Virus record (IMG/VR): IMGVR_UViG_2531839468_000012
DNA length: 14,086 nt
From: a virus
Lineage: Duplodnaviria; Heunggongvirae; Uroviricota; Caudoviricetes
Direction: 5' to 3' (one strand)
Part shown: positions 1-14,086 of the stretch, one piece after another
Numbering within the stretch: position 1 is the first letter of the stretch
Layout: each line of letters starts with the position of its first letter
Translations under genes and position numbers: made by a program
Notes under the pieces: model-generated
Databases searched by the model: none
Told to the model about the DNA's origin: nothing
What the model saw: only the letters and a program-made list of their open reading frames with translations

Positions 1-1
1 A

Positions 2-778
2 GTGATCCGTCGTGCTGGTGGCGTGGAATGTCTTGAAAGCTGGTTACTTCGTGAAAAAGGCTGCCAGTGGCCTCATTCCGACTGGCACAGCGAGAACATG
101 ACCACAATGCGACACGCGCCGGGCGCAATCCGTCTGTGCTGGCACTGCGATAATCAGTTACGTGATCAGTTCACGGAGCGGCTGGAATCAATGGCAACGG
201 ATAACTGTGCCCATTGGGTGTTGTCTGTAGTCCGTCGGGATCTCGATTTTAATGATAACCATGCCGTGACAATGCCGGAACTGTGCTGGTGGCTGGTTCG
301 TAATGACCTGGCGGATGCCTTACCGGAAAGCGCAGCCCGTAAGGCACTGAGATTACCGAAGTCTGTTTTGCCGTCTGTCACCCGGGAAAGTGACCTTGTG
401 CCTTCGGTTCCTGCCACCAGCATTATCCAGGATAAAGCGAAAAAGGTGCTGGCGCTGAAAGTGGATCCGGAGTCGCCGGAGTCTTTTATGTTACGCCCCA
501 AACGTCGTCGCTGGGTTAATGAACAGTACACGCGCTGGGTTAAGACGCAGCCGTGTGCATGTTGTGGAAAGCCAGCTGATGATCCGCATCATCTGATAGG
601 CCATGGTCAGGGTGGAATGGGTACAAAAGCGCATGACCTTTTTGTGCTGCCTTTGTGCAGAAAACACCACGACGAACTGCATGCGGATACCGTGGCATTT
701 GAAGAGAAGTATGGCTCCCAGCTGGAGCTGATATTTCGTTTTATCGATCGCGCACTGGCGATTGGTGTGCTGGCCTGA
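2..778 (+). CDS. DUF968-family phage protein (YdfU-like), 5' partial at window edge, with C-terminal Cys/His-rich HNH-like motif
   Basis: ORF is open to the window start and ends at TGA 776-778. C-terminus carries CACCGK...HHLIGHG...CRKHHDELH, a zinc-finger/HNH-like spacing. It lies directly upstream of Q, as ydfU does relative to the Q homologue in Qin-type prophages (from memory). Confidence 0.55.
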
Positions 779-795
779 TTTTGTGGAGAAAGTTA

Positions 796-1179
796 ATGCG
801 TGATATTCAGATGGTTCTTGAACGTTGGGGAGCGTGGGCGGCTAATAATCATGAAGATGTGACCTGGTCGTCCATTGCCGCCGGTTTTAAGGGATTAATT
901 CCTTCAAAAGTAAAATCTCGCCCGCAATGTTGTGACGATGACGCGATGATCATTTGCGGGTGCATGGCCCGTCTGAAAAAGAACAACAGCGATTTGCACG
1001 ATTTATTAGTAGATTATTATGTAGTCGGTATGACATTCATGTCACTGGCAGGTAAGCATTGCTGCTCTGATGGTTATATCGGGAAAAGGTTACAGAAGGC
1101 TGAGGGCATAATTGAAGGGATGTTAATGGCATTAGATATCCGGTTAGAGATGGATATCGTTGTTAATAACTCTAATTAA
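796..1179 (+). CDS. Q: Late-gene antiterminator Q, phage 82 / DLP12 QuuD type (127 aa)
   Basis: ATG at 796 with GGAG 7-8 nt upstream; the ORF-track start at 781 is TTG and less likely. Protein begins [24 protein letters not shown] and ends [11 protein letters not shown], which matches my recollection of DLP12 QuuD. Position is the one expected for Q: after the nin-type region and before the lysis genes. Confidence 0.8.
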
Positions 1180-1212
1180 TATGCCAATTGTTTACTGAAA
1201 GTTATTAAAAAT

Positions 1213-1230
1213 GGGGCGTTGCAACGCCCC
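1213..1230 (-). terminator. Perfect 18-bp palindrome GGGGCGTTGCAACGCCCC; intrinsic-terminator candidate for minus-strand (porin) transcripts
   Basis: Perfect inverted repeat. On the minus strand it is followed by ATTTTTAATAAC (T-rich). On the plus strand it is followed by CAAAAATAAA, so it is not a good plus-strand terminator. Confidence 0.4.
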
Positions 1231-1296
1231 CAAAAATAAAGGGTAATATATAACAGAAGGTTTATATAGTTAGAAGCAAGGTTGTGCTCCTAAAGG

Positions 1297-1318
1297 AAGT
1301 GGCTTGAGGGAGCCACTT
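1297..1318. other. Stem-loop AAGTGGCT-tgaggg-AGCCACTT (8-bp stem) between the convergent Q and porin genes
   Basis: Perfect 8-bp inverted repeat with a 6-nt loop. No adjacent U-tract on either strand, so function is unclear. Confidence 0.3.
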
Positions 1319-1320
1319 AT

Positions 1321-1358
1321 ATGTTGGGGAGGCAACGCCTCCCGCAACATATCTTTTT
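1321..1358 (+). terminator. Hairpin plus T-run; candidate tR'-like terminator of the short late leader RNA, or a bidirectional terminator
   Basis: ATGTTG-GGGAGGC-aac-GCCTCCC-g-CAACAT forms a long GC-rich stem (1321-1350) followed by ATCTTTTTCG on the plus strand. It lies about 140-180 bp downstream of the Q stop, where lambdoid phages place pR' and tR'. Confidence 0.35.
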
Positions 1359-1368
1359 CGTAATCAGA

Positions 1369-2466
1369 TTAGAACTGGTAAACCAGACCTACAGCAACGA
1401 TGTCATCAGTGCTTACACCGAGTGCTTTAGTGAAGTCATTTTTGTCAAGCAGGTTGATTTTGTAATCAACGAAAGTAGACATATTTTTGTTGAAGTAATA
1501 GGTTGCACCTACATCAACATATTTGACTAAGTCCTGATCGCCCCATACTCCAAGATCCTTACCTTTAGATTGCAGGTAAGCAACGGACGGACGCAGACCG
1601 AAATCGAACTGATATTGTGCAACAGCTTCGAAGTTTTGAGCTTTATTAGCAACGAAGTGATCAGCAAATACAGTCATATTCTGGGTTTCAGAATAGGTAG
1701 TGGCCAGGTAAATGTTGTTAGCGTCATATTTCAGACCTGCGGCCCAAACTTCTGCATTTTTACCGGAAGCAAATACTTCAGGAAGAACTTTCCCTGCATT
1801 AACTTGAGTGTCGGTACGATCAGATTTCGCATAAGTTGCACCGATACCGAATCCTTCGTATTCATAGGTAGCAGAGAAACCGAAGCCATCACCGTTACCT
1901 TCGGTGTAGTTATCGAAATCGCTACGATCGTTTTTGCCTTGGTACTGAGCAGCAAAGTTCAGACCATCAACCAGACCAAAGAAGTCGTTGTTACGATAGG
2001 TTGCAACACCAGTGGTGCGACCAGTCATGAACACATCTGTTTGGGTCCAGGTATCGCCACCGAATTCTGGCAGAACGTCAGTCCACGCACCGATGTCGTA
2101 TGCTACACCGTAGTTACGGCCGTAATCGATTGAGCCGTAGTCACCGAATTTCAGGCCTGCAAATGCAAGACGGGTTTTGTCTTTGGAGGAACCTTGAGAT
2201 TCAGCGCGGTTGCCTTTGAATTCATATTCCCACTGACCGAAACCAGTCAGCTGATCGTTGATTTGGGTTTCGCCTTTGAAGCCCAGACGAACATAAGTAG
2301 TATCACCATCATCTGCATCGTTAGAGGAAAAGTAGTGCTTGGCATTAACTTTCCCGTACAGATCCAGCTTGTTACTGTCTTTATTATAAATTTCAGCTGC
2401 CTGAGCAGACATCGCCATCAGTACTGATGCAGCTACAGCAGAAATTGCCACTGTTAATTTTTTCAT
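1369..2466 (-). CDS. nmpC: Outer-membrane general porin, phage-encoded NmpC/Lc (OmpC/OmpF family), 365 aa
   Basis: Signal peptide [23 protein letters not shown] followed by AEIYNKD. Mature protein has OmpC-like beta-barrel sequence (e.g. [28 protein letters not shown]) and the C-terminal VGLVYQF ending in Phe. ATG at 2464-2466 (complement) and TAA at 1369-1371 (complement). It sits between Q and the holin on the opposite strand, as lc does in phage PA-2 and nmpC in DLP12. Confidence 0.85.
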
Positions 2467-3010
2467 CGTGAGCCCTTTTTTTTGAACTATTATTAAAAAA
2501 TAGATGTCACTGCGCGATAAATATTCATCTAATCAATGTGATTATTTCAAGATGTAAGTTTTAGTTTCTCATTTAATTTGTGAAGTAGATCTCTATTTTT
2601 ATCTGAACTTTTTCTATCGAAACCTATTTATGGCTCTTATTTGAACAAAAATAAACCTATTAGCTAATTTATATTAATGGCTGTTATTTATGGTGGTTCT
2701 ATAATTCGTCTGTTTAATTTAAACCAGCTAAAAATAACACTGGAAATTATTTATTGTTTATTTGTTGAAGTTTTCTTATGTATTTGTGGTGATGTTTTGA
2801 ACACTCGGTAGCATTCTCATAAATATCATTCAGTGGTTTACGTACGTAAAAAATTGGTTATGCTGTTAAGAGTGGTTACTTCGTCACACAGCTTAAACCC
2901 GCCGTCGAGCTGGTTTTTCCATTTTTTGAGTCTCGATATTAGCTGATAACTCAATACCTGAGTTATTCACTGACTCGGAGTCAGTTACGTTTCTGCTTTT
3001 TTGCGATACG
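2467..3010. promoter_or_regulatory. AT-rich 544-bp intergenic region: porin promoter/regulatory region (minus strand) and 5' leader of the lysis genes (plus strand)
   Basis: No ORF of 60 aa or more, very AT-rich, directly upstream of the porin ATG. Around 2538-2570 the minus strand reads TTACATCTTGAAATAATCA, which resembles the OmpR box TTTACATTTTGAAACATCTA. A weak hairpin plus T-run lies at 2968-3003 on the plus strand. Confidence 0.4.
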
Positions 3011-3057
3011 TTGTATTCCCTCAATTTACACCCGCTTTGTCTGCGAGGTGGGGTTAT

Positions 3058-3271
3058 GAAATTCATGGATAAGTTAACAACTGGAGTCGCCTATGGCACC
3101 TCAGCAGGTAGTGCCGGTTACTGGTTTTTACAGCTGCTCGATAAAGTCACTCCCTCACAGTGGGCAGCAATAGGTGTGCTGGGTAGCCTGGTATTTGGCC
3201 TGCTGACGTACCTGACAAACCTTTATTTCAAGATTAAAGAAGATAAGCGCAAGGCTGCGAGAGGTGAATAA
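3058..3271 (+). CDS. S: Class II pinholin, phage 21 S type, 71 aa, with dual-start motif (antiholin start 3058, holin start 3067)
   Basis: [26 protein letters not shown]... resembles S21 (from memory). Two in-frame ATGs are separated by Lys-Phe (M-K-F-M). GAGGTGGGG Shine-Dalgarno at 3045-3053. Two hydrophobic segments and a charged C-terminus [13 protein letters not shown]. Stop TAA overlaps the next ATG (TAATG). Confidence 0.8.
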
Positions 3272-3768
3272 TGCCTCCATCATTACGAAAAGCCGTTGCT
3301 GCTGCTATTGGTGGCGGAGCAATTGCTATAGCATCAGTGTTAATCACTGGCCCAAGTGGTAACGATGGTCTGGAAGGTGTCAGCTACATACCATACAAAG
3401 ATATTGTTGGTGTATGGACTGTATGTCACGGACACACCGGAAAAGACATCATGCTCGGTAAAACGTATACCAAAGCAGAATGCAAAGCACTCTTGAATAA
3501 AGACCTTGCCACTGTCGCCAGACAAATTAACCCGTATATCAAAGTCGATATACCGGAAACAACGCGCGGCGCTCTTTACTCATTCGTTTACAACGTGGGT
3601 GCTGGCAATTTTAGAACATCGACGCTTCTTCGCAAAATAAACCAGGGCGATATCAAAGGCGCATGTGATCAGCTGCGTCGCTGGACATACGCTGGCGGTA
3701 AGCAATGGAAAGGCCTGATGACTCGTCGTGAGATTGAGCGTGAAGTCTGTTTGTGGGGGCAACAGTGA
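3271..3768 (+). CDS. R: SAR endolysin (signal-anchor-release lysozyme, T4-lysozyme-like GH24), phage 21 R type, 165 aa
   Basis: N-terminal Gly/Ala-rich weak transmembrane segment [20 protein letters not shown], typical of a SAR domain. Glu-Asp-Thr catalytic spacing in [17 protein letters not shown]. Start is translationally coupled to the holin stop. Confidence 0.85.
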
Positions 3769-4226
3769 GCAGAGTAACCGCGATTATATCCGCTCTGATT
3801 ATCTGCATCATCGTCAGCCTGTCATGGGCGGTCAATCATTACCGTGATAACGCAATCGCCTACAAAGTCCAGCGCGACAAAAATGCCAGAGAACTGAAGC
3901 TAGCGAACGCGGCAATTACTGACATGCAGATGCGTCAGCGTGATGTTGCTGCGCTCGATGCAAAATACACGAAGGAGTTAGCTGATGCGAAAGCTGAAAA
4001 TGATGCTCTGCGTGATGATGTTGCCGCTGGTCGTCGTCGGTTGCACATCAAAGCAGTCTGTCAGTCAGTGCGTGAAGCCACCACGGCCTCCGGCGTGGAT
4101 AATGCAGCCTCCCCCCGACTGGCAGACACCGCTGAACGGGATTATTTCACCCTCAGAGAGAGGCTGATCACTATGCAAAAACAACTGGAAGGAACCCAGA
4201 AGTATATTAATGAGCAGTGCAGATAG
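3765..4226 (+). CDS. Rz: Rz i-spanin (inner-membrane spanin subunit), lambda type, 153 aa
   Basis: GTG at 3765 gives [29 protein letters not shown]..., an N-terminal transmembrane helix followed by a coiled-coil periplasmic domain. It overlaps the endolysin stop (GTGA). GGGGG lies 7 nt upstream. An alternative GTG at 3753 would add 4 aa. Confidence 0.85.
3985..4167 (+). CDS. Rz1: Rz1 o-spanin lipoprotein, 60 aa, embedded in the +1 frame of Rz
   Basis: [24 protein letters not shown]... has a lipobox (VVGC) and a proline-rich mature region [15 protein letters not shown]. It is fully nested inside Rz in a different frame, the classic lambda arrangement. Confidence 0.8.
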
Positions 4227-4257
4227 AGCTGACCATATCGATGGGCAACTCATGCAA

Positions 4258-4551
4258 TTATTTTGAGCAATACACACGCGCTTCCAGCGGAGTATAAATG
4301 CCTAAAGTAATAAAACCGAGCAATCCATTTACGAATGTTTGCTGGGTTTCTGTTTTAACAACATTTTCTGCGCCGCCACAAATTTTAGCTGCATCGACAG
4401 TTTTCTTCTGCCCAATTCCAGAAACGAAGAAATGATGGGTGATGGTTTCCTTTGGTGCTACTGCTGTCTGTTTGTTTTGAACAGTAAATGTCTGTTGAGC
4501 ACATCCTGTAATAAGCAGGGCCAGCGCAGTAGCGAGTAGCATTTTTTTCAT
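4258..4551 (-). CDS. bor: Bor lipoprotein (serum-resistance, Iss-like lysogenic-conversion protein), 97 aa
   Basis: MKKMLLATALALLITGCAQQ... has a signal peptide with lipobox LITGC. Length and position (32 bp after Rz, opposite strand) match lambda bor. Confidence 0.85.
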   Translation of the reverse strand: MKKMLLATALALLITGCAQQTFTVQNKQTAVAPKETITHHFFVSGIGQKKTVDAAKICGGAENVVKTETQQTFVNGLLGFITLGIYTPLEARVYCSK

Positions 4552-4841
4552 GGTGTTATTCCCGATGCTTTTTGAAGTTCGCAGAATCGTATGTGTAGAA
4601 AATTAAACAAACCCTAAACAATGAGTTGAAATTTCATATTGTTAATATTTATTAATGTATGCCAGGTGCGATGAATCGTCATTGTATTCCCGGATTAACT
4701 ATGTCCACAGCCCTGACGGGGAACTTCTCTGCGGGAGTGTCCGGGAATAATTAAAAACGATGCACACAGGGTTTAGCGCGTACATGCATTGTATTATGCC
4801 AACACCCCGGTGCTGACACGGAAGAAACCGGACGTTATGAT

Positions 4842-5375
4842 TTAGCGTGGAAAGATTTGTGTAGTGTTCTGAATGCTCTCAGTAAATAGTAATGAATTAT
4901 CAAAGGTATAGTAATATCTTTTATGTTCGTGGATATTTGTAATCCATCGGAAAACTCCTGCTTTAGCAAGATTTTCCCTGTATTGCTGAAATGTGATTTC
5001 TCTTGATTTCAACCTATCATAGGACGTTTCTATAAGATGCGTATTTCTTGAGAATTTAACATTTACAACCTTTTTAAGTCCTTTTATTAACACGGTGTTA
5101 TCGTTTTCTAACACAATGTGAATATTATCTGTGGCTAGATAGTAAATATAATGTGAGACATTGTGACGTTTTAGTTCAGAATAAAACAATTCACAGTTTA
5201 AATCTTTTCGCACTTGATCGAATATTTCTTTAAAAATGGCAACCTGAGCCATTGGTAAAACCTTCCATGTGATACGAGGGCGCGTAGTTTGCATTATCGT
5301 TTTTATCGCTTCAATCTGGTCTGACCTCTTTGTGTTTTGTTGATGATTTATGTCAAATATTAGGAATGTTTTCAA
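4842..5375 (-). CDS. Hypothetical protein, 177 aa, AT-rich; corresponds to the lambda right-arm ORF between bor and cos (possibly YbcV/DUF1398-like 'putative envelope protein')
   Basis: Long ORF in a very AT-rich segment with no recognisable catalytic motif. Collinear with the lambda region downstream of bor. The family assignment is from memory and tentative. Confidence 0.45.
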
Positions 5376-5537
5376 TTAATAGTATTGGTTGCGTAACAAA
5401 GTGCGGTCCTGCTGGCATTCTGGAGGGAAATACAACCGACAGATGTATGTAAGGCCAACGTGCTCAAACCTTCATACAGAAAGATTTGAAGTAATATTTT
5501 AACCGCTAGATGAAGAGCAAGCGCATGGAGCGACAAA

Positions 5538-5744
5538 ATGAATAAAGAACAATCTGCTGATGATCCCTCCGTGGATCTGATTCGTGTAAAAAATATGCTT
5601 AATAGCACCATTTCTATGAGTTACCCTGATGTTGTAATTGCATGTATAGAACATAAGGTGTCTCTGGAAGCATTCAGGGCAATTGAGGCAGCGTTGGTGA
5701 AGCACGATAATAATATGAAGGATTATTCCCTGGTGGTTGACTGA
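5538..5744 (+). CDS. Small acidic hypothetical protein, 68 aa (YbcW-like)
   Basis: ATG at 5538 preceded by GGAGCGACAAA. Followed by an 8-bp-stem hairpin GTGACAGA...TCTGTCAC at about 5780-5812. Divergent from the 177-aa ORF. Size and position match DLP12 ybcW (from memory). Confidence 0.4.
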
Positions 5745-5908
5745 TCACCATAACTGCTAATCATTCAAACTACTTAACCTGTGACAGAGCCAACACGCAG
5801 TCTGTCACTGTCAGGAAAGTGGTAAAACTGCAACTCAATTACTGCAATGCCCTCGTAATTAAGTGAATTTACAATATCGTCCTGTTCGGAGGGAAGAACG
5901 CGGGATGT

Positions 5909-6103
5909 TCATTCTTCATCACTTTTAATTGATGTATATGCTCTCTTTTCTGACGTTAGCCTCCGACGGCAGGCTTCAATGACCCAGGCTGAGAAATTCC
6001 CGGACCCTTTTTGCTCAAGAGCGATGTTAATTTGTTCAATCATTTGGTTAGGAAAGCGGATGTTGCGGGTTGTTGTTCTGCGGGTTCTGTTCTTAGTTGA
6101 CAT
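5909..6103 (-). CDS. Small basic protein with ribbon-helix-helix-like pattern, 64 aa (YlcI/DUF3950-like), possible DNA-binding regulator
   Basis: MSTKNRTRRTTTRNIRFPNQMIEQINIALEQKGSGNFSAWVIEACRRRL: basic N-terminus, then a short beta-strand (RNIRFP), helix (QMIEQINIALEQ), turn and helix (FSAWVIEACRRRL), consistent with a CopG/Arc-type fold. Confidence 0.45.
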   Translation of the reverse strand: MSTKNRTRRTTTRNIRFPNQMIEQINIALEQKGSGNFSAWVIEACRRRLTSEKRAYTSIKSDEE

Positions 6104-6302
6104 GAGGTTGCCCCGTATTCAGTGTCGCTGATTTGTATTGTCTGAAGTTGTTTTTACGTTAAGTTGATGCAGATCAATTAATACGATACCTGCGTCATAA
6201 TTGATTATTTGACGTGGTTTGATGGCGTAGATGCACGTTGTGACATGTAGATGATAATTATTATCATTTTGTGGGTCCTTTCCGGCGATCCGACAGGTTA
6301 CG

Positions 6303-6314
6303 GGGCGGCGACCT
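6303..6314 (+). other. cos: cosN: lambda-type 12-nt cohesive-end site GGGCGGCGACCT (terminase nicking site; left end of the packaged genome)
   Basis: Exact GGGCGGCGACCT preceded by ...CGACAGGTTACG (lambda right terminus) and followed by CGCGGGTTTTCGCTATTTATGAAAATTTTCCGG (lambda left terminus), as I recall the lambda sequence. Confidence 0.8.
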
Positions 6315-6491
6315 CGCGGGTTTTCGCTATTTATGAAAATTTTCCGGTTTAAGGCGTTTCCGTTCTTCTTCGTCATAACTTAATGTTTTTATTTAAAATA
6401 CCCTCTGAAAAGAAAGGAAACGACAGGTGCTGAAAGCGAGCTTTTTGGCCTCTGTCGTTTCCTTTCTCTGTTTTTGTCCGTGGAATGAACA
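6315..6491 (+). promoter_or_regulatory. cosB region: gpNu1/IHF binding elements between cosN and the Nu1 start
   Basis: Position relative to cosN and Nu1. Contains repeated CGTTTCC-type elements and a 12-bp inverted repeat AGGAAACGACAG (6414-6425) / CTGTCGTTTCCT (6452-6463). Confidence 0.5.
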
Positions 6492-7011
6492 ATGGAAGTC
6501 AACAAAAAGCAGCTGGCTGACATTTTCGGTGCGAGTATCCGTACCATTCAGAACTGGCAGGAACAGGGAATGCCCGTTCTGCGAGGCGGTGGCAAGGGTA
6601 ATGAGGTGCTTTATGACTCTGCCGCCGTCATAAAATGGTATGCCGAAAGGGATGCTGAAATTGAGAACGAAAAGCTGCGCCGGGAAGTTGAAGAACTGCG
6701 GCAGGCCAGCGAGACAGATCTCCAGCCAGGGACTATTGAGTACGAACGCCATCGACTTACGCGTGCGCAGGCCGACGCACAGGAGCTGAAAAATGCCAGA
6801 GACTCCGCTGAAGTGGTGGAAACCGCATTCTGTACTTTCGTGCTGTCGCGGATCGCAGGTGAAATTGCCAGTATTCTCGACGGGATCCCCCTGTCGGTGC
6901 AGCGGCGTTTTCCGGAACTGGAAAACCGACATGTTGATTTCCTGAAACGGGATATCATCAAAGCCATGAACAAAGCAGCCGCGCTGGATGAACTGATACC
7001 GGGGTTGCTGA

Positions 7012-7037
<26 letters not shown>
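6492..7037 (+). CDS. Nu1: Terminase small subunit gpNu1, 181 aa
   Basis: MEVNKKQLADIFGASIRTIQNWQEQGMPVLRGGGKGNEVLYD... has an N-terminal winged-HTH DNA-binding motif and matches lambda Nu1 in length. The 3' end overlaps the A start. Confidence 0.9.
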
Positions 7038-10719
<3,682 letters not shown>

Positions 10720-10739
<20 letters not shown>

Positions 10740-12039
10740 TCTCCCGCATATTGCCAGCATGGCTTTTAATGAGCCGCTGATGCTTGAACCCGCCTATGCG
10801 CGGGTTTTCTTTTGTGCGCTTGCAGGCCAGCTTGGGATCAGTCGCCTGACGGATGCAGTATCCGGCGACAGCCTGACTGCCGGAGAGGCACCCGCGGCGC
10901 TGGCGTTATCCGGTGATGATGACGGACCACGACAGGCCCGCAGTTATCAGGTCATGAACGGCATCGCCGTGCTGCCGGTGTCCGGTACGCTGGTCAGCCG
11001 GACGCGGGCGCTGCAGCCGTATTCGGGAATGACCGGTTACAACGGCATTATCGCCCGTCTGCAACAGGCTGCCAGCGATCCGATGGTGGACGGCATTCTG
11101 CTCGATATGGACACACCGGGCGGGATGGTGGCGGGAGCATTTGACTGTGCTGACATCATCGCCCGTGTGCGTGACATAAAGCCGGTATGGGCGCTGGCCA
11201 ACGACATGAACTGCAGTGCAGGTCAGCTGCTTGCCAGCGCCGCCTCCCGGCGTCTGGTCACGCAGACCGCCCGGACAGGCTCCATCGGCGTCATGATGGC
11301 TCACAGTAATTACGGCGCTGCGCTGGAGAAACAGGGCGTGGAAATCACGCTGATTTACAGCGGCAGCCATAAGGTGGATGGCAACCCCTACAGCCATCTA
11401 CCGGGTGATGTCCGGGAGACACTGCAGTCCCGGATGGATGCAACCCGCCGGATGTTTGCGCAGAAGGTGTCGGCATATACCGGCCTGTCCGTGCAGGCTG
11501 TGCTGGATACCGAGGCTGCAGTGTATAGCGGTCAGGAGGCCATTGATGCCGGACTGGCTGATGAACTTGTCAACAGCACCGATGCGATCACCGTTATGCG
11601 TGATGCACTGGATGCACGTAAATCCCGTCTCTCAGGAGGGCGAATGACCAAAGAGACTCAATCAACAACTGTTTCAGCCACTGCTTCGCAGGCTGACGTT
11701 ACTGACGTGGTGCAAGCGACGGAGGGCGAAAACGCCAGCGCGGCGCAGCCGGACGTGAACGCGCAGATCACCGCTGCGGTTGCGGCAGAAAACAGCCGCA
11801 TTATGGGGATCCTCAACTGTGAGGAAGCTCACGGACGCGAAGAACAGGCACGTGTGCTGGCCGAAACCCCCGGTATGACCGTGGAAACGGCCCGCCGCAT
11901 TCTGGCAGCTGCACCACAGAGTGCACAGGCGCGCAGTGACACTGCGCTGGATCGTCTGATGCAGGGGGCACCGGCACCACTGGCTGCAGGTAACCCGGCA
12001 TCTGATGCCGTTAACGATTTGCTGAACACACCAGTGTAA
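10720..12039 (+). CDS. C: Head maturation protease / minor capsid protein gpC (ClpP/SppA-like S49 fold), 439 aa, GTG start
   Basis: GTG at 10720 gives MTAELRNLPHIASMAFNEPLMLEP..., a 20-nt overlap with the B 3' end as in lambda. The ORF-track start at 10585 is an upstream in-frame extension that overlaps B. Confidence 0.85.
11434..12039 (+). CDS. Nu3: Scaffolding protein gpNu3, in-frame internal start within C (shares the C-terminal 201 codons)
   Basis: In-frame ATG at 11434 (MDATRRMFAQKVSAY...), 714 nt into C, the same offset as lambda Nu3 relative to C (from memory). Confidence 0.6.
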   Translation: MDATRRMFAQKVSAYTGLSVQAVLDTEAAVYSGQEAIDAGLADELVNSTDAITVMRDALDARKSRLSGGRMTKETQSTTVSATASQADVTDVVQATEGENASAAQPDVNAQITAAVAAENSRIMGILNCEEAHGREEQARVLAETPGMTVETARRILAAAPQSAQARSDTALDRLMQGAPAPLAAGNPASDAVNDLLNTPV

Positions 12040-12048
12040 GGGATGTTT

Positions 12049-12381
12049 ATGACGAGCAAAGAAACCTTTACCCATTACCAGCCGCTGGGCAACAGTGACC
12101 CGGCACATACGGCAACCGCGCCCGGCGGATTGAGTGCGAAAGCGCCTGCAATGACCCCGCTGATGCTGGACACCTCCACCCGTAAGCTGGTTGCGTGGGA
12201 TGGCACCACCGACGGTACTGCCGTTGGCATTCTGGCGGTTGATGCTGACCAGACCAGCACCACGCTGACGTTCTACAAGTCCGGCACGTTCCGTTATGAG
12301 GATGTGCTCTGGCCGGAGGCTGCCAGCGACGAGACGAAAAAACGGACCGCGTTTGCCGGAACGGCAATCAGCATCGTTTAA
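12049..12381 (+). CDS. D: Head decoration protein gpD, 110 aa
   Basis: [27 protein letters not shown]...[12 protein letters not shown] at 12049 is 10 nt after the C/Nu3 stop, as in lambda. The ORF-track start at 12043 adds MF. Confidence 0.85.
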
Positions 12382-12400
12382 CCTTACCCTTCATCACTAA

Positions 12401-12424
12401 AGGCCGCCTGTGCGGCTTTTTTTA
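12401..12424 (+). terminator. Intrinsic-terminator-like hairpin between D and E
   Basis: AGGCCGC-ctgt-GCGGCT stem followed by TTTTTTT, immediately before the E start at 12437. Confidence 0.4.
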
Positions 12425-12436
12425 CGGGATTTTTTT

Positions 12437-13461
12437 ATGTCGATGTACACAACCGCCCAGCTGCTGGCGGCAAATGAGCAGAAATTTAAGTTTGATCCGC
12501 TGTTTCTGCGTCTCTTTTTCCGTGAGAGCTATCCCTTCACCACGGAGAAAGTCTATCTCTCACAAATTCCGGGACTGGTAAACATGGCGCTGTACGTTTC
12601 GCCGATTGTTTCCGGTGAGGTTATCCGTTCCCGTGGCGGCTCCACCTCTGAATTTACGCCGGGATATGTCAAACCCAAGCATGAGGTGAATCCGCAGATG
12701 ACCCTGCGTCGCCTGCCGGATGAAGATCCGCAGAATCTGGCGGACCCGGCTTACCGCCGCCGTCGCATCATCATGCAGAACATGCGAGACGAAGAGCTGG
12801 CCATTGCTCAGGTCGAAGAGATGCAGGCAGTTTCTGCTGTGCTTAAGGGCAAATACACCATGACCGGTGAAGCCTTCGATCCGGTTGAGGTGGATATGGG
12901 CCGCAGTGCGGCGAACAACATCACACAGTCCGGTGGTACGGAGTGGAGCAAGCGTGACAAGTCCACGTATGACCCGACCGACGATATCGAAGCCTATGCG
13001 CTGAACGCCAGCGGCGTGGTGAATATCATCGTGTTTGATCCGAAAGGCTGGGCGCTGTTCCGTTCCTTCAAAGCCGTCAAGGAGAAGCTGGATACCCGTC
13101 GCGGCTCTCATTCCGAGCTGGAGACAGCGGTAAAAGACCTGGGCGAAGCGGTGTCCTATAAGGGGATGTATGGCGATACGGCGATCGTCGTGTATTCCGG
13201 ACAGTACGTGGAAAACGACGTCAAAAAGAACTTCCTGCCGGACAACACGATGGTGCTGGGGAACACTCAGGCACGCGGTCTGCGCACCTATGGCTGCATT
13301 CAGGATGCGGACGCACAGCGCGAAGGTATTAACGCCTCTGCCCGCTCCCGAAAAACTGGGTGACCACCGGCGATCCGGCGCGTGAGTTCACCATGATTCA
13401 GTCAGCACCGCTGATGCTGCTGGCTGATCCTGATGCGTTCGTGTCCGTACAACTGGCGTAA
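12437..13461 (+). pseudogene. E: Major capsid protein gpE, disrupted near the 3' end by a -1 frameshift (1025 nt versus the 1026 expected); truncated ORF ends at 13363
   Basis: MSMYTTAQLLAANEQKFKFDPLFLRLFF... runs to ...GINASAR, then SRKTG and stop at 13361-13363. The remaining E C-terminus (PKNWVTTGDPAREFTMIQSAPLMLLADPDAFVSVQLA, stop 13459-13461) is encoded in the neighbouring frame. The frame change lies between 13343 and 13350, in CGCTCCCGAAAAA; the C-run 13347-13349 appears one C short. Confidence 0.75.
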
Positions 13462-13463
13462 TC

Positions 13464-13490
13464 ATGGCCCTTCGGGGCCATTTTCTCTCT
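13464..13490 (+). terminator. Stem-loop ATGGCCC-ttcg-GGGCCAT followed by a U-rich tract, between E and FI
   Basis: Perfect 7-bp GC-rich stem with a TTCG tetraloop, followed by TTTTCTCTCT, 3 nt after the E stop and about 12 nt before the FI Shine-Dalgarno (GGAGG, 13494-13498). Confidence 0.4.
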
Positions 13491-13502
13491 GTGGAGGAGT
13501 CC

Positions 13503-14086
<584 letters not shown>

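Follow-up and report, generated by a model that had tools for sequence, protein, structure and literature searches.

Three small genes between bor and cos of a DLP12-type prophage correspond to the known accessory genes ybcV, ybcW and ylcI

What occupies the low-GC segment between bor and cos at the right end of a lambdoid prophage, and do its small genes form one system? The question was raised by a 14,086-nucleotide stretch of prophage DNA (IMG/VR record IMGVR_UViG_2531839468_000012; hereafter the window), in which the original prediction, made from the letters alone, had placed three small open reading frames of unknown function in a lambdoid accessory slot, with a small regulator, an exclusion function or a toxin-antitoxin-like pair as possible cargo. 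The frames were found where they had been placed, at 4842-5375 (minus strand), 5538-5744 (plus strand) and 5909-6103 (minus strand), and their coordinates and strands bear out a divergent layout for the first two and a convergent one for the last two. We also agree that this is a low-GC accessory slot: GC content is 38.2% across 4842-6103 and 31.6% in the first gene alone compared with 57.1% in the head genes, and the cargo genes range from 32 to 44% against that 57%. The labels acidic and basic suit the 68-aa protein (pI 4.9) and the 64-aa protein (pI 10.5), respectively.

Identity and distribution of the right-end genes

Judged by sequence identity, the three frames correspond to prophage genes that already have names, ybcV, ybcW and ylcI, which makes the finding an ordinary and previously known one and removes the label "unknown" from the frames. 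The DNA of all three genes is 100% identical to ybcV-ybcW-ylcI of the E. coli K-12 prophage DLP12 (b0558, b0559 and b4589), where the neighbours borD and nohD are the same as in the window; K-12 DLP12 ends right past nohD and carries IS5 in nmpC, whereas the window runs on through the head genes. The genes are also present in lambda itself, arranged identically between bor and cos in both order and strand and with 98.2-98.7% DNA identity between the segment and lambda 46761-48502, and their lambda counterparts are lambdap78, lambdap79 and an unannotated open reading frame at 48109-48303 (complement). YbcW (68/68 residues) and YlcI (64/64) are identical to the lambda proteins and YbcV differs at two of 136 residues, while the longer 177-aa frame differs at four residues and in its start codon (TTG/GTG). 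Unlike lambda, the window represents an apparently defective DLP12-type prophage, in which an nmpC-like porin gene is present along with QuuD and the EssD/RrrD lysis genes.

Among 5426 complete E. coli genomes, ylcI-like copies were found in 4184, ybcV-like copies in 3025 and ybcW-like copies in 2009, and the numbers of separate places were 9869, 3868 and 2160, respectively, with up to 12 ylcI-like places in one genome. The three genes, carried by 37-77% of complete E. coli genomes, belong to the last few in lambda that still lack an assigned function.

We consider it very probable that the segment represents the accessory region usually found at the right end of lambda/DLP12-type prophages, made up of three independent, dispensable cargo genes. 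Related phages carry ybcV, ybcW and ylcI in every combination, with orientations constant. All three accompany Nu1 in lambda and DLP12, homologues of ybcV and ylcI accompany Nu1 in Qin-type phages, and ylcI alone does so in mEp332, while in BP-4795 a lone ylcI homologue lies beside HNH/TerS. In strain 55989, ybcV and ybcW occur with a DUF1441 TerS, in CFSAN061763 ybcW is alone, and an AlpA/primase element (L051) holds a ybcW-like gene. The 80 IMG/VR loci with a lambda-type ylcI divide into 36 with both ybcW and ybcV, 5 with ybcW only and 39 with neither. Because the genes occur in every combination, they are best regarded as independent cargo genes, or morons, and not as a toxin-antitoxin pair or a single system.

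The moron concept reportedly goes back to Hendrix. As expected of morons, the genes are present or absent between otherwise colinear relatives (seen in the indel map of Qin-type phages and mEp332) and deviate in base composition. The lambda morons bor and lom, whose outer-membrane products have phenotypes, are likewise extra late-region genes of lower GC that are variably present and dispensable for lytic growth. In the window bor (4258-4551) flanks the accessory segment on the side opposite cos and, like ybcV and ylcI, is antisense to the late operon. Unlike bor and lom, ybcV and ylcI have no known phenotype, and our scan found no flanking terminators.

The Qin-type arrangement (K-12 Qin and phage PhiR42_1) shares the N-terminal DUF3950 domain and a near-identical upstream region and cos, and its DUF1398 gene has 86% DNA identity to ybcV. 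In contrast to the window, it lacks ybcW, and its ynfO gene (77 aa, with another tail) immediately precedes ydfO, both being on one strand. Compared with this arrangement, the window has a replacement of ~610 bp (about 5332-5945) through which ybcW is introduced, and such a replacement would account for the shedding of lambdap79 by lambda through recombination with Qin (bioRxiv 10.64898/2026.09.04.749371).

Extent, control and probable role of ybcV

The 177-aa length given to the first frame in the original prediction is an over-call, and the real gene spans 136 codons and a stop codon at 4842-5252 on the minus strand. The mechanical frame (4842-5375) opens with TTG and lacks a Shine-Dalgarno sequence there, whereas GGAAGG lies 8 nt 5' of the ATG at 5252. 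The DUF1398 match covers only residues 49-167 of the long frame, and the YdfO structure alignment begins at its residue 40. RefSeq annotates 136 aa in both E. coli A1 and K-12, and Qin-type homologues have an in-frame TAG or 1-nt indels within the extension. A PdhR box also lies inside it, and we therefore regard the extension (5253-5375) as non-coding and as part of the ybcV/ybcW control region.

This divergent intergenic region extends over 5253-5537 and probably contains both promoters. Its PdhR box (ATCTGGTCTGACCTCTT, 5314-5330) exactly matches a genomic-SELEX site (PMC7660256) and is at the same time the left junction of the ybcW-bearing indel relative to Qin-type phages, with colinearity to PhiR42_1 ending at window position 5331. 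In a pdhR mutant of K-12, ybcV and ybcW mRNA are ~10-fold lower (PMC7660256). The expression data on the three genes come from K-12 DLP12 and lambda, that is, from another strain than that of the window, and the K-12 sequence of the intergenic region is identical to the window's. A sigma-70 consensus scan gave no strong site, promoter and terminator signals did not exceed those of shuffled sequences, and an Rfam scan of 4500-6500 returned no family.

In a profile search, YbcV matched PF07166 (DUF1398/YdfO-like) over profile positions 1-119 of 119 with 157.3 bits against a cut-off of 22, and it has the duplicated helix-helix-three-strand unit of the YdfO fold, an orphan fold (PDB 2HH8). Its dN/dS is 0.20-0.23, compared with 1.3-1.5 in the off-frames. 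DUF1398 homologues also exist outside prophage modules, as ycgX adjoining bluR in E. coli and, in a Klebsiella PLSDB plasmid record (L057), amid selenium-metabolism, gap and aldA genes; a search with the Klebsiella protein returned only Klebsiella relatives. When T4 MotB, which copurifies with H-NS, was over-expressed, ybcV rose more than 1000-fold (PMC7827196), and CRISPRi knock-down of lambdap78 or of bor did not reduce plating (~1 for lambdap78; PMC10695390). The ybcV gene encodes a soluble protein, has its own host-controlled expression in K-12 and is transcribed against the late operon, as is its neighbour bor; its product probably acts in the lysogen and not in virion assembly.

YlcI as a candidate DNA-binding protein

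The minus-strand gene ylcI (5909-6103) encodes a 64-aa basic DUF3950 (YlcI/YnfO) protein that scores 72.8 bits against PF13132 (cut-off 25) and 37.6 against NF041551 (cut-off 30). Purifying selection on its domain is very strong, with a dN/dS of 0.056 at a dS of 0.85 relative to BP-4795. The conserved N-terminal module (aa 1-49, 5957-6103, minus strand) consists of a basic arm, the candidate beta-strand TRNIRFP and two helices; DNA homology with Stx-type phages is confined to it, and alignment shows that the tails beyond about aa 49 vary among phages. An AF2 model (12-sequence alignment, pLDDT 62.8) placed helices at residues 19-32 and 34-63.

We think, with confidence a little better than even, that YlcI most likely acts as a small regulator that binds DNA as a dimer, with a ribbon-helix-helix fold of the Arc/CopG type. 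In the predicted layout, the basic N-terminal arm would lead into the strand TRNIRFP, which would be followed by helix 19-32, a turn made of G-S-G-N, another helix and an exchangeable C-terminal tail. In size and basic N-terminal arm the protein resembles Arc and Mnt of P22 and the CopG repressors, and, as in Arc/CopG, an x-N-h-R-(F/W)-P motif stands ahead of a predicted helix, which a Gly-x-Ser/Asn turn joins to another predicted helix. However, searches by sequence, profile and structure gave no significant match to these repressors, and a conserved operator was not found: Pfam returned no ribbon-helix-helix family even at E<=10, phmmer and hmmsearch profile searches of the PDB returned no ribbon-helix-helix chain, and hhalign against Arc gave an E of 0.027 and a probability of 1.8%, in a register with YlcI 12-33 on Arc 9-30. 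Of the ribbon-helix-helix likeness originally proposed for this protein, the sequence pattern is therefore upheld, but the fold found no confirmation in profile or structure searches.

An inverted repeat, ATCAATTAATACG-N7-CGTCATAATTGAT, lies at 6173-6205, 70-100 nt upstream of ylcI, and is a speculative candidate for a protein-binding site. Its 11/13 match was attained in 1.1% of dinucleotide shuffles, and it is kept in lambda, Qin-type phages and mEp332 and missing upstream of the BP-4795 homologue. In every layout that contains it, ylcI is the final gene on the minus strand ahead of the packaging genes.

Late transcription, cos and the ybcW gene

Between ylcI and the packaging genes lies cos (6273-6314; nick site 6302/6303), which forms the edge of the accessory segment. 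The 12-nt cohesive end GGGCGGCGACCT is found at 6303-6314, the linear lambda record stops at window position 6302, and a cosQ-like GGGTCCT motif lies at 6273-6279. The sequence of the 169 bp that separate ylcI from cosQ is nearly invariant in lambda, Qin-type phages and mEp332. An 85-aa open reading frame at 6119-6376 (minus strand), which spans the cos nick site, was rejected. On the other side of ylcI, the convergent spacer to ybcW (5745-5908) has short hairpins at 5781-5808 and 5833-5864, lacks a canonical terminator and is not unusually structured (fold z -0.21); K-12 RNA-seq lists ybcW-ylcI as a convergent excludon with overlapping transcripts (PMC12288877).

During lytic growth, the Q-antiterminated late transcript would run antisense to the three minus-strand genes (bor, ybcV and ylcI) and in the sense direction of ybcW, and from this orientation the former should go off and the latter on. 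The prophage of the window seems to be defective, as its terminase and capsid genes show apparent frameshifts (positions 8163 and 13346) and FI contains an IS, and late transcription may for this reason never take place in it. In uninduced K-12, ybcW is transcribed as well (PMC12288877, PMC7660256).

The 68-aa acidic protein encoded by ybcW (lambdap79; 5538-5744, plus strand, the sense of the late operon) matched phrog_657 with 161.7 bits over 1-68 of 68 and nothing in Pfam, NCBIfam, PADLOC or PDB. Its core (aa 17-56) is invariant and its N-terminus (aa 1-16) variable. Relative to ~88% variants its dN/dS is 0.36-0.49, compared with ~1.0 in the off-frames, and relative to ~95% variants it is about 0.9-1.2 on only 9-11 changes. 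A search of 1.84 billion representative proteins returned no more than 199 hits. Most of these were lambda control DNA in fragments full of errors, and the farthest natural relative among them was 52% identical.

A September 2026 preprint describes lambdap79 as setting off the NADase defence system Vulcan: Vulcan escapers lose lambdap79, co-expression of Vulcan and lambdap79 is toxic, and a lambda from which lambdap79 has been deleted still forms plaques (bioRxiv 10.64898/2026.09.04.749371). This evidence consists of one preprint on a heterologous Enterobacter system. CRISPRi of lambdap79 lowers plating, although the literature calls the gene non-essential (PMC10695390), and we take the plating loss to reflect a polar effect, with the late transcript blocked. 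As trigger of an NAD-depleting system, the gene has recently gained a link to bacterial immunity, and its native role and its presence in prophages could affect phage-host and prophage-defence compatibility. Other abortive-infection systems likewise sense phage anti-defence proteins. Our best guess, a low-confidence one, is that YbcW is a host-directed or counter-defence factor. Rather improbable is a combined reading in which YbcW is a small acidic counter-defence or host take-over protein sensed by Vulcan as a guard, its variable N-terminus and invariant core being the footprint of that conflict, and YlcI a ribbon-helix-helix regulator expressed in the lysogen, with exchangeable tails, which from its place at the lysis/packaging boundary would control neighbouring cargo, for instance the Qin-type ynfO-ydfO operon, or host genes.

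Alternative explanations

The toxin-antitoxin-like pair of the original prediction would make YlcI a ribbon-helix-helix antitoxin or repressor whose tail neutralises or controls YbcV or YbcW, and it is very unlikely. Qin-type phages, in which ynfO (DUF3950) lies 43 bp upstream of ydfO (DUF1398) in the same direction, do have the classic layout of a ribbon-helix-helix antitoxin followed by its toxin, and the exchange of YlcI tails past about aa 49 between contexts is antitoxin-like. Yet this adjacent, co-directional pair was found in Qin-type phages only. In the window, about 650 bp and the opposite-strand ybcW separate ylcI from ybcV, which are not co-transcribed here, and elsewhere the genes part in both directions: DUF3950 occurs without DUF1398 in mEp332, BP-4795 and the 39 IMG/VR loci mentioned above, strain 55989 and the Klebsiella locus have DUF1398 but no DUF3950, and ylcI-like places far outnumber ybcV-like ones. 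Pfam, NCBIfam and PADLOC gave no match to a toxin, antitoxin or defence family (the PADLOC profiles gave chance-level hits only, at E 0.001-0.04), and over-expression of YdfO, as cited in PMC4077768, is protective rather than toxic. A role in the virion or in packaging, with YbcV as the head or envelope protein that RefSeq, PHROG and GenBank call it and YlcI as a cos-proximal DNA-binding terminase accessory, is very unlikely as well. It draws on the label "head protein" of phrog_413, on older records of a "putative envelope protein" and on the position of ylcI, which is the last gene ahead of packaging modules with two unrelated terminase types, adjoins Nu1 divergently in all 68 IMG/VR loci whose contig reaches far enough upstream and is separated from cosQ by the nearly invariant 169 bp. 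Against it, phages with the DUF1441 terminase lack ylcI, the minimal cos (cosQ-cosN-cosB) presumably excludes it, and ybcV and ylcI lie on the strand opposite to every morphogenetic gene. YbcV is hydrophilic (GRAVY -0.46), has homologues outside prophage modules and is dispensable for plating when knocked down as lambdap78 (PMC10695390); neither a structural need nor membrane features were found for it, which leaves both database labels unsupported.

That the frames are decaying or spurious products of AT-rich junk in a defective prophage is hardly credible. The apparently damaged terminase, capsid and FI genes would suit such a view, long open reading frames arise less rarely in AT-rich DNA, and the 177-aa frame really is partly spurious; however, all three frames are under purifying selection relative to off-frame controls, functional lambda and thousands of bacterial genomes carry intact copies, the structure of a YdfO homologue has been solved, and lambdap79 has a genetic phenotype (bioRxiv 10.64898/2026.09.04.749371). 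Three independent cargo genes thus remain our preferred explanation. For their products, the searches for mundane known functions assigned known families (DUF1398 to YbcV, DUF3950 to YlcI) but no functions, and we concur with the earlier view that the sequences alone give none of the three proteins a biochemical function.

Several annotations can be corrected from these results, namely the 177-aa over-call, which lambda also carries, the unsupported name "head protein" and the absence of ylcI from the lambda reference (NC_001416). Homology searches with the right-end region call for caution, as lambda control DNA floods the results; ours were swamped by contigs of ~3.5 kb, in our view the lambda control amplicon of nanopore sequencing, and by whole-lambda spike-ins.

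Identity and extent of the three genes

The three ORFs between bor and cos (4842-6103) are already known and named, and are carried by the best-studied phage of all. Their DNA is 100% identical to ybcV, ybcW and ylcI of the K-12 cryptic prophage DLP12, and the last 1.7 kb of lambda matches the whole segment at 98.2-98.7% identity. The first ORF matches DUF1398 (157 bits) as well as YdfO, a protein of solved structure (PDB 2HH8; E 1.5e-71), the second matches only phrog_657, at full length, and the third exceeds the curated cut-offs of both DUF3950 and the NCBIfam YlcI/YnfO model. As for the lambda counterparts, two residues inside the 136-aa gene distinguish YbcV from lambdap78, the 68-aa YbcW is identical to lambdap79 (68/68 residues), and the 64-aa YlcI is identical to the product of an ORF at 48109-48303 (complement; 64/64 residues). 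In the lambda record NC_001416, this ylcI homologue carries no annotation, and lambdap78 (47042-47575) is given as 177 aa with an unsupported “head protein” label.

The original prediction had the positions and orientations of the ORFs right, as well as the low GC content of the segment (38%, with ybcV at 31.6%, versus 57% in the head genes) and the acidic and basic character of the 68-aa (pI 4.9) and 64-aa (pI 10.5) proteins. The observation is real except for the 177-aa length of the first ORF, which was over-called as the mechanical maximum; the actual gene is 4842-5252, encoding 136 aa. Within the long ORF, neither the DUF1398 profile nor the YdfO structure aligns before residues 40-49, and RefSeq annotates 136 aa in both E. 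coli strain A1 and K-12. A GGAAGG ribosome-binding site lies 8 nt upstream of the ATG at 5252, and none was found upstream of the TTG start at 5375. In addition, homologues of the Qin type (the ynfO-ydfO arrangement of K-12 Qin and phage PhiR42_1) have an in-frame TAG or 1-nt indels in the upstream extension. A published PdhR-binding site also falls within the extension.

Selection and prevalence

Nei-Gojobori dN/dS on natural variants shows that all three genes are protein-coding and under selection, with constraint strongest on ylcI and weakest on ybcW. For ybcV, dN/dS was 0.20-0.23 against Qin-type copies (dS ~0.45), compared with 1.3-1.5 in the two off-frames. The DUF3950 domain of ylcI gave 0.056 against phage BP-4795 (dS 0.85), and 24 synonymous and 6 non-synonymous changes against PPyecE. 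For ybcW, the ratio was 0.36-0.49 against ~88% variants (off-frames ~1.0) and ~0.9-1.2 against ~95% variants, the latter on just 9-11 changes; replacements are concentrated at positions 1-16 and 57-60 and are almost absent from the core (17-56).

Among 5426 complete E. coli genomes, ylcI-like genes occur in 4184 (9869 places), ybcV-like genes in 3025 (3868 places) and ybcW-like genes in 2009 (2160 places). Lambda DNA contaminating public data, as ~3.5-kb contigs or “plasmids” and as whole 48.5-kb lambda, was met in loci L009-L049, in lists of homologous proteins and among plasmid matches, filed under Staphylococcus, Acinetobacter, Streptomyces, Cohnella, Pseudomonas and others, and yields thousands of error-laden pseudo-homologues of the three proteins. 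We interpret the ~3.5-kb contigs as the nanopore control amplicon from the right end of lambda. Over this region, “Campylobacter phage CJLB-4” and lambda share 98.7% identity.

Three independent cargo genes at one hot-spot

The general idea of uncharacterised accessory biology at this place holds; the suggestion of a toxin-antitoxin-like pair does not, as this, like a single machine, is contradicted by the separate occurrence of the genes in every combination. Lambda and DLP12 carry all three adjoining Nu1, Qin-type phages carry ynfO immediately upstream of ydfO on the same strand and no ybcW, and mEp332 has ylcI only. In BP-4795 and PPyecE the DUF3950 gene is the sole one of the three, diverging from an HNH/TerS/TerL module of another type; in strain 55989, ybcV and ybcW adjoin a DUF1441-type terminase; CFSAN061763 has ybcW alone; and an AlpA/primase element holds a 52% identical ybcW relative. 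Lambda-type ylcI loci in IMG/VR (n=80) were accompanied by both ybcW and ybcV in 36, by ybcW only in 5 and by neither in 39, and Nu1 adjoins ylcI divergently in 68/68 loci whose contig extends far enough upstream. Orientations relative to the late operon are constant throughout (ybcV minus, ybcW plus, ylcI minus).

Compared with the Qin-type arrangement, window ~5332-5945 is a replacement carrying ybcW, whose left junction coincides exactly with the PdhR box. This replacement map, together with the range of combinations, shows that ybcV, ybcW and ylcI are three independent cargo genes sharing one hot-spot. In Qin-type phages (locus L007, 2969-3202 / 2501-2926), the ynfO stop codon overlaps the PdhR-box sequence of DLP12 and lambda, and homology between the two arrangements breaks exactly there (window 5314-5331), which suggests a recurrent joint for recombination. 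The genes are conserved, dispensable and independently mobile cargo at the lysis/packaging boundary.

Expression and possible roles

The uninduced K-12 prophage transcribes ybcV and ybcW. A PdhR site lies between them, and both mRNAs are ~10-fold lower in a pdhR mutant (PMC7660256); over-expression of T4 MotB, a DNA-binding protein copurifying with H-NS, raises both >1000-fold (PMC7827196). A published listing of convergent excludons, i.e. gene pairs with overlapping 3′ transcripts, includes ybcW-ylcI (PMC12288877), in keeping with the lack of any canonical terminator across the 164 bp between the two genes. For the paralogue ydfO there are scattered reports only: it is induced by an ionic liquid, and its over-expression is cited as protective against peroxide (PMC4077768).

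ybcW has recently been linked to bacterial immunity. In a September 2026 preprint on Vulcan, a NIR-HEAT NADase system, lambdap79 was deleted in 7/7 lambda-vir escapers, probably via recombination with Qin, and its co-expression with Vulcan was toxic, identifying lambdap79 as the activator of Vulcan (10.64898/2026.09.04.749371). The window YbcW is identical to this activator, and the ybcW product is made in lytic infection and sensed by Vulcan. In lambda, CRISPRi knock-down of bor or lambdap78 did not lower plating; that of lambdap79 did, although the same paper, drawing on earlier literature, classes this gene as non-essential, and the authors caution about polar effects (PMC10695390). As the late transcript runs in the lambdap79 sense, we read the lower plating as a block of that transcript. 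YbcW may have a host-directed or counter-defence role worth keeping even though it triggers a defence.

Like bor, ybcV and ylcI run antisense to the late operon; they may likewise be genes of the lysogenic phase, in which case late transcription should silence them. The ribbon-helix-helix fold suggested for YlcI is putative, and the protein is probably a small regulator that binds DNA as a dimer and whose tails are exchangeable. A candidate binding site, an inverted repeat upstream of ylcI (6173-6205), is matched by 1.1% of shuffles and is absent in the BP-4795 context.

Prophage context and cos

The window is from a lambdoid prophage of E. coli, with 99.9% identity to a prophage of strain A1 over 1-13810. 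Colinearity ends at 13810, within gene FI, and 13811-14086 matches an IS3-family element present at such junctions in other E. coli genomes; the sole Rfam match at gathering score in the window, isrC (13879-14000, 144 bits), lies inside this element. From the left end, a DUF968 gene and the antiterminator quuD are followed by an nmpC-like porin gene (1369-2466, minus strand), intact at 365 aa whereas that of K-12 DLP12 is IS5-interrupted, the lysis genes essD, rrrD and rzpD (with Rz1), and bor (4258-4551, minus strand), the left neighbour of the ybcV-ybcW-ylcI segment. To the right of the segment and cos lie nohD/Nu1 (6492-7037) and then, in order, the large terminase subunit, W, portal, protease, D, E and FI.

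The gene for gpA, the large terminase subunit, is intact at 641 aa in the A1 prophage; in the window an extra T at 8163 (GCATTTATTC versus GCATTATTC in A1) splits it into ORFs 7012-8184 and 8189-8938, a frameshift that may reflect either genuine decay or a sequencing error in a homopolymer. The major capsid gene (ORF 12410-13363) is truncated by a 1-nt deletion at ~13346 relative to A1.

The ybcV-ybcW-ylcI segment is bounded by cos (nick site 6302/6303): window position 6302 is the last base of linear lambda records, and the cohesive-end sequence GGGCGGCGACCT follows at 6303-6314. An 85-aa minus-strand ORF (6119-6376, phrog_9395) that spans the nick site is annotated in some phage records and is probably not a gene. 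Immediately left of cosQ is a perfect-looking AT-rich palindrome, ATGATAATTATTATCAT (6251-6267). Upstream of Nu1, the cosB region holds a long inverted repeat (6406-6472) that yields chance miRNA-like Rfam matches and corresponds to R2/R1, the inverted elements bound by Nu1 in lambda.
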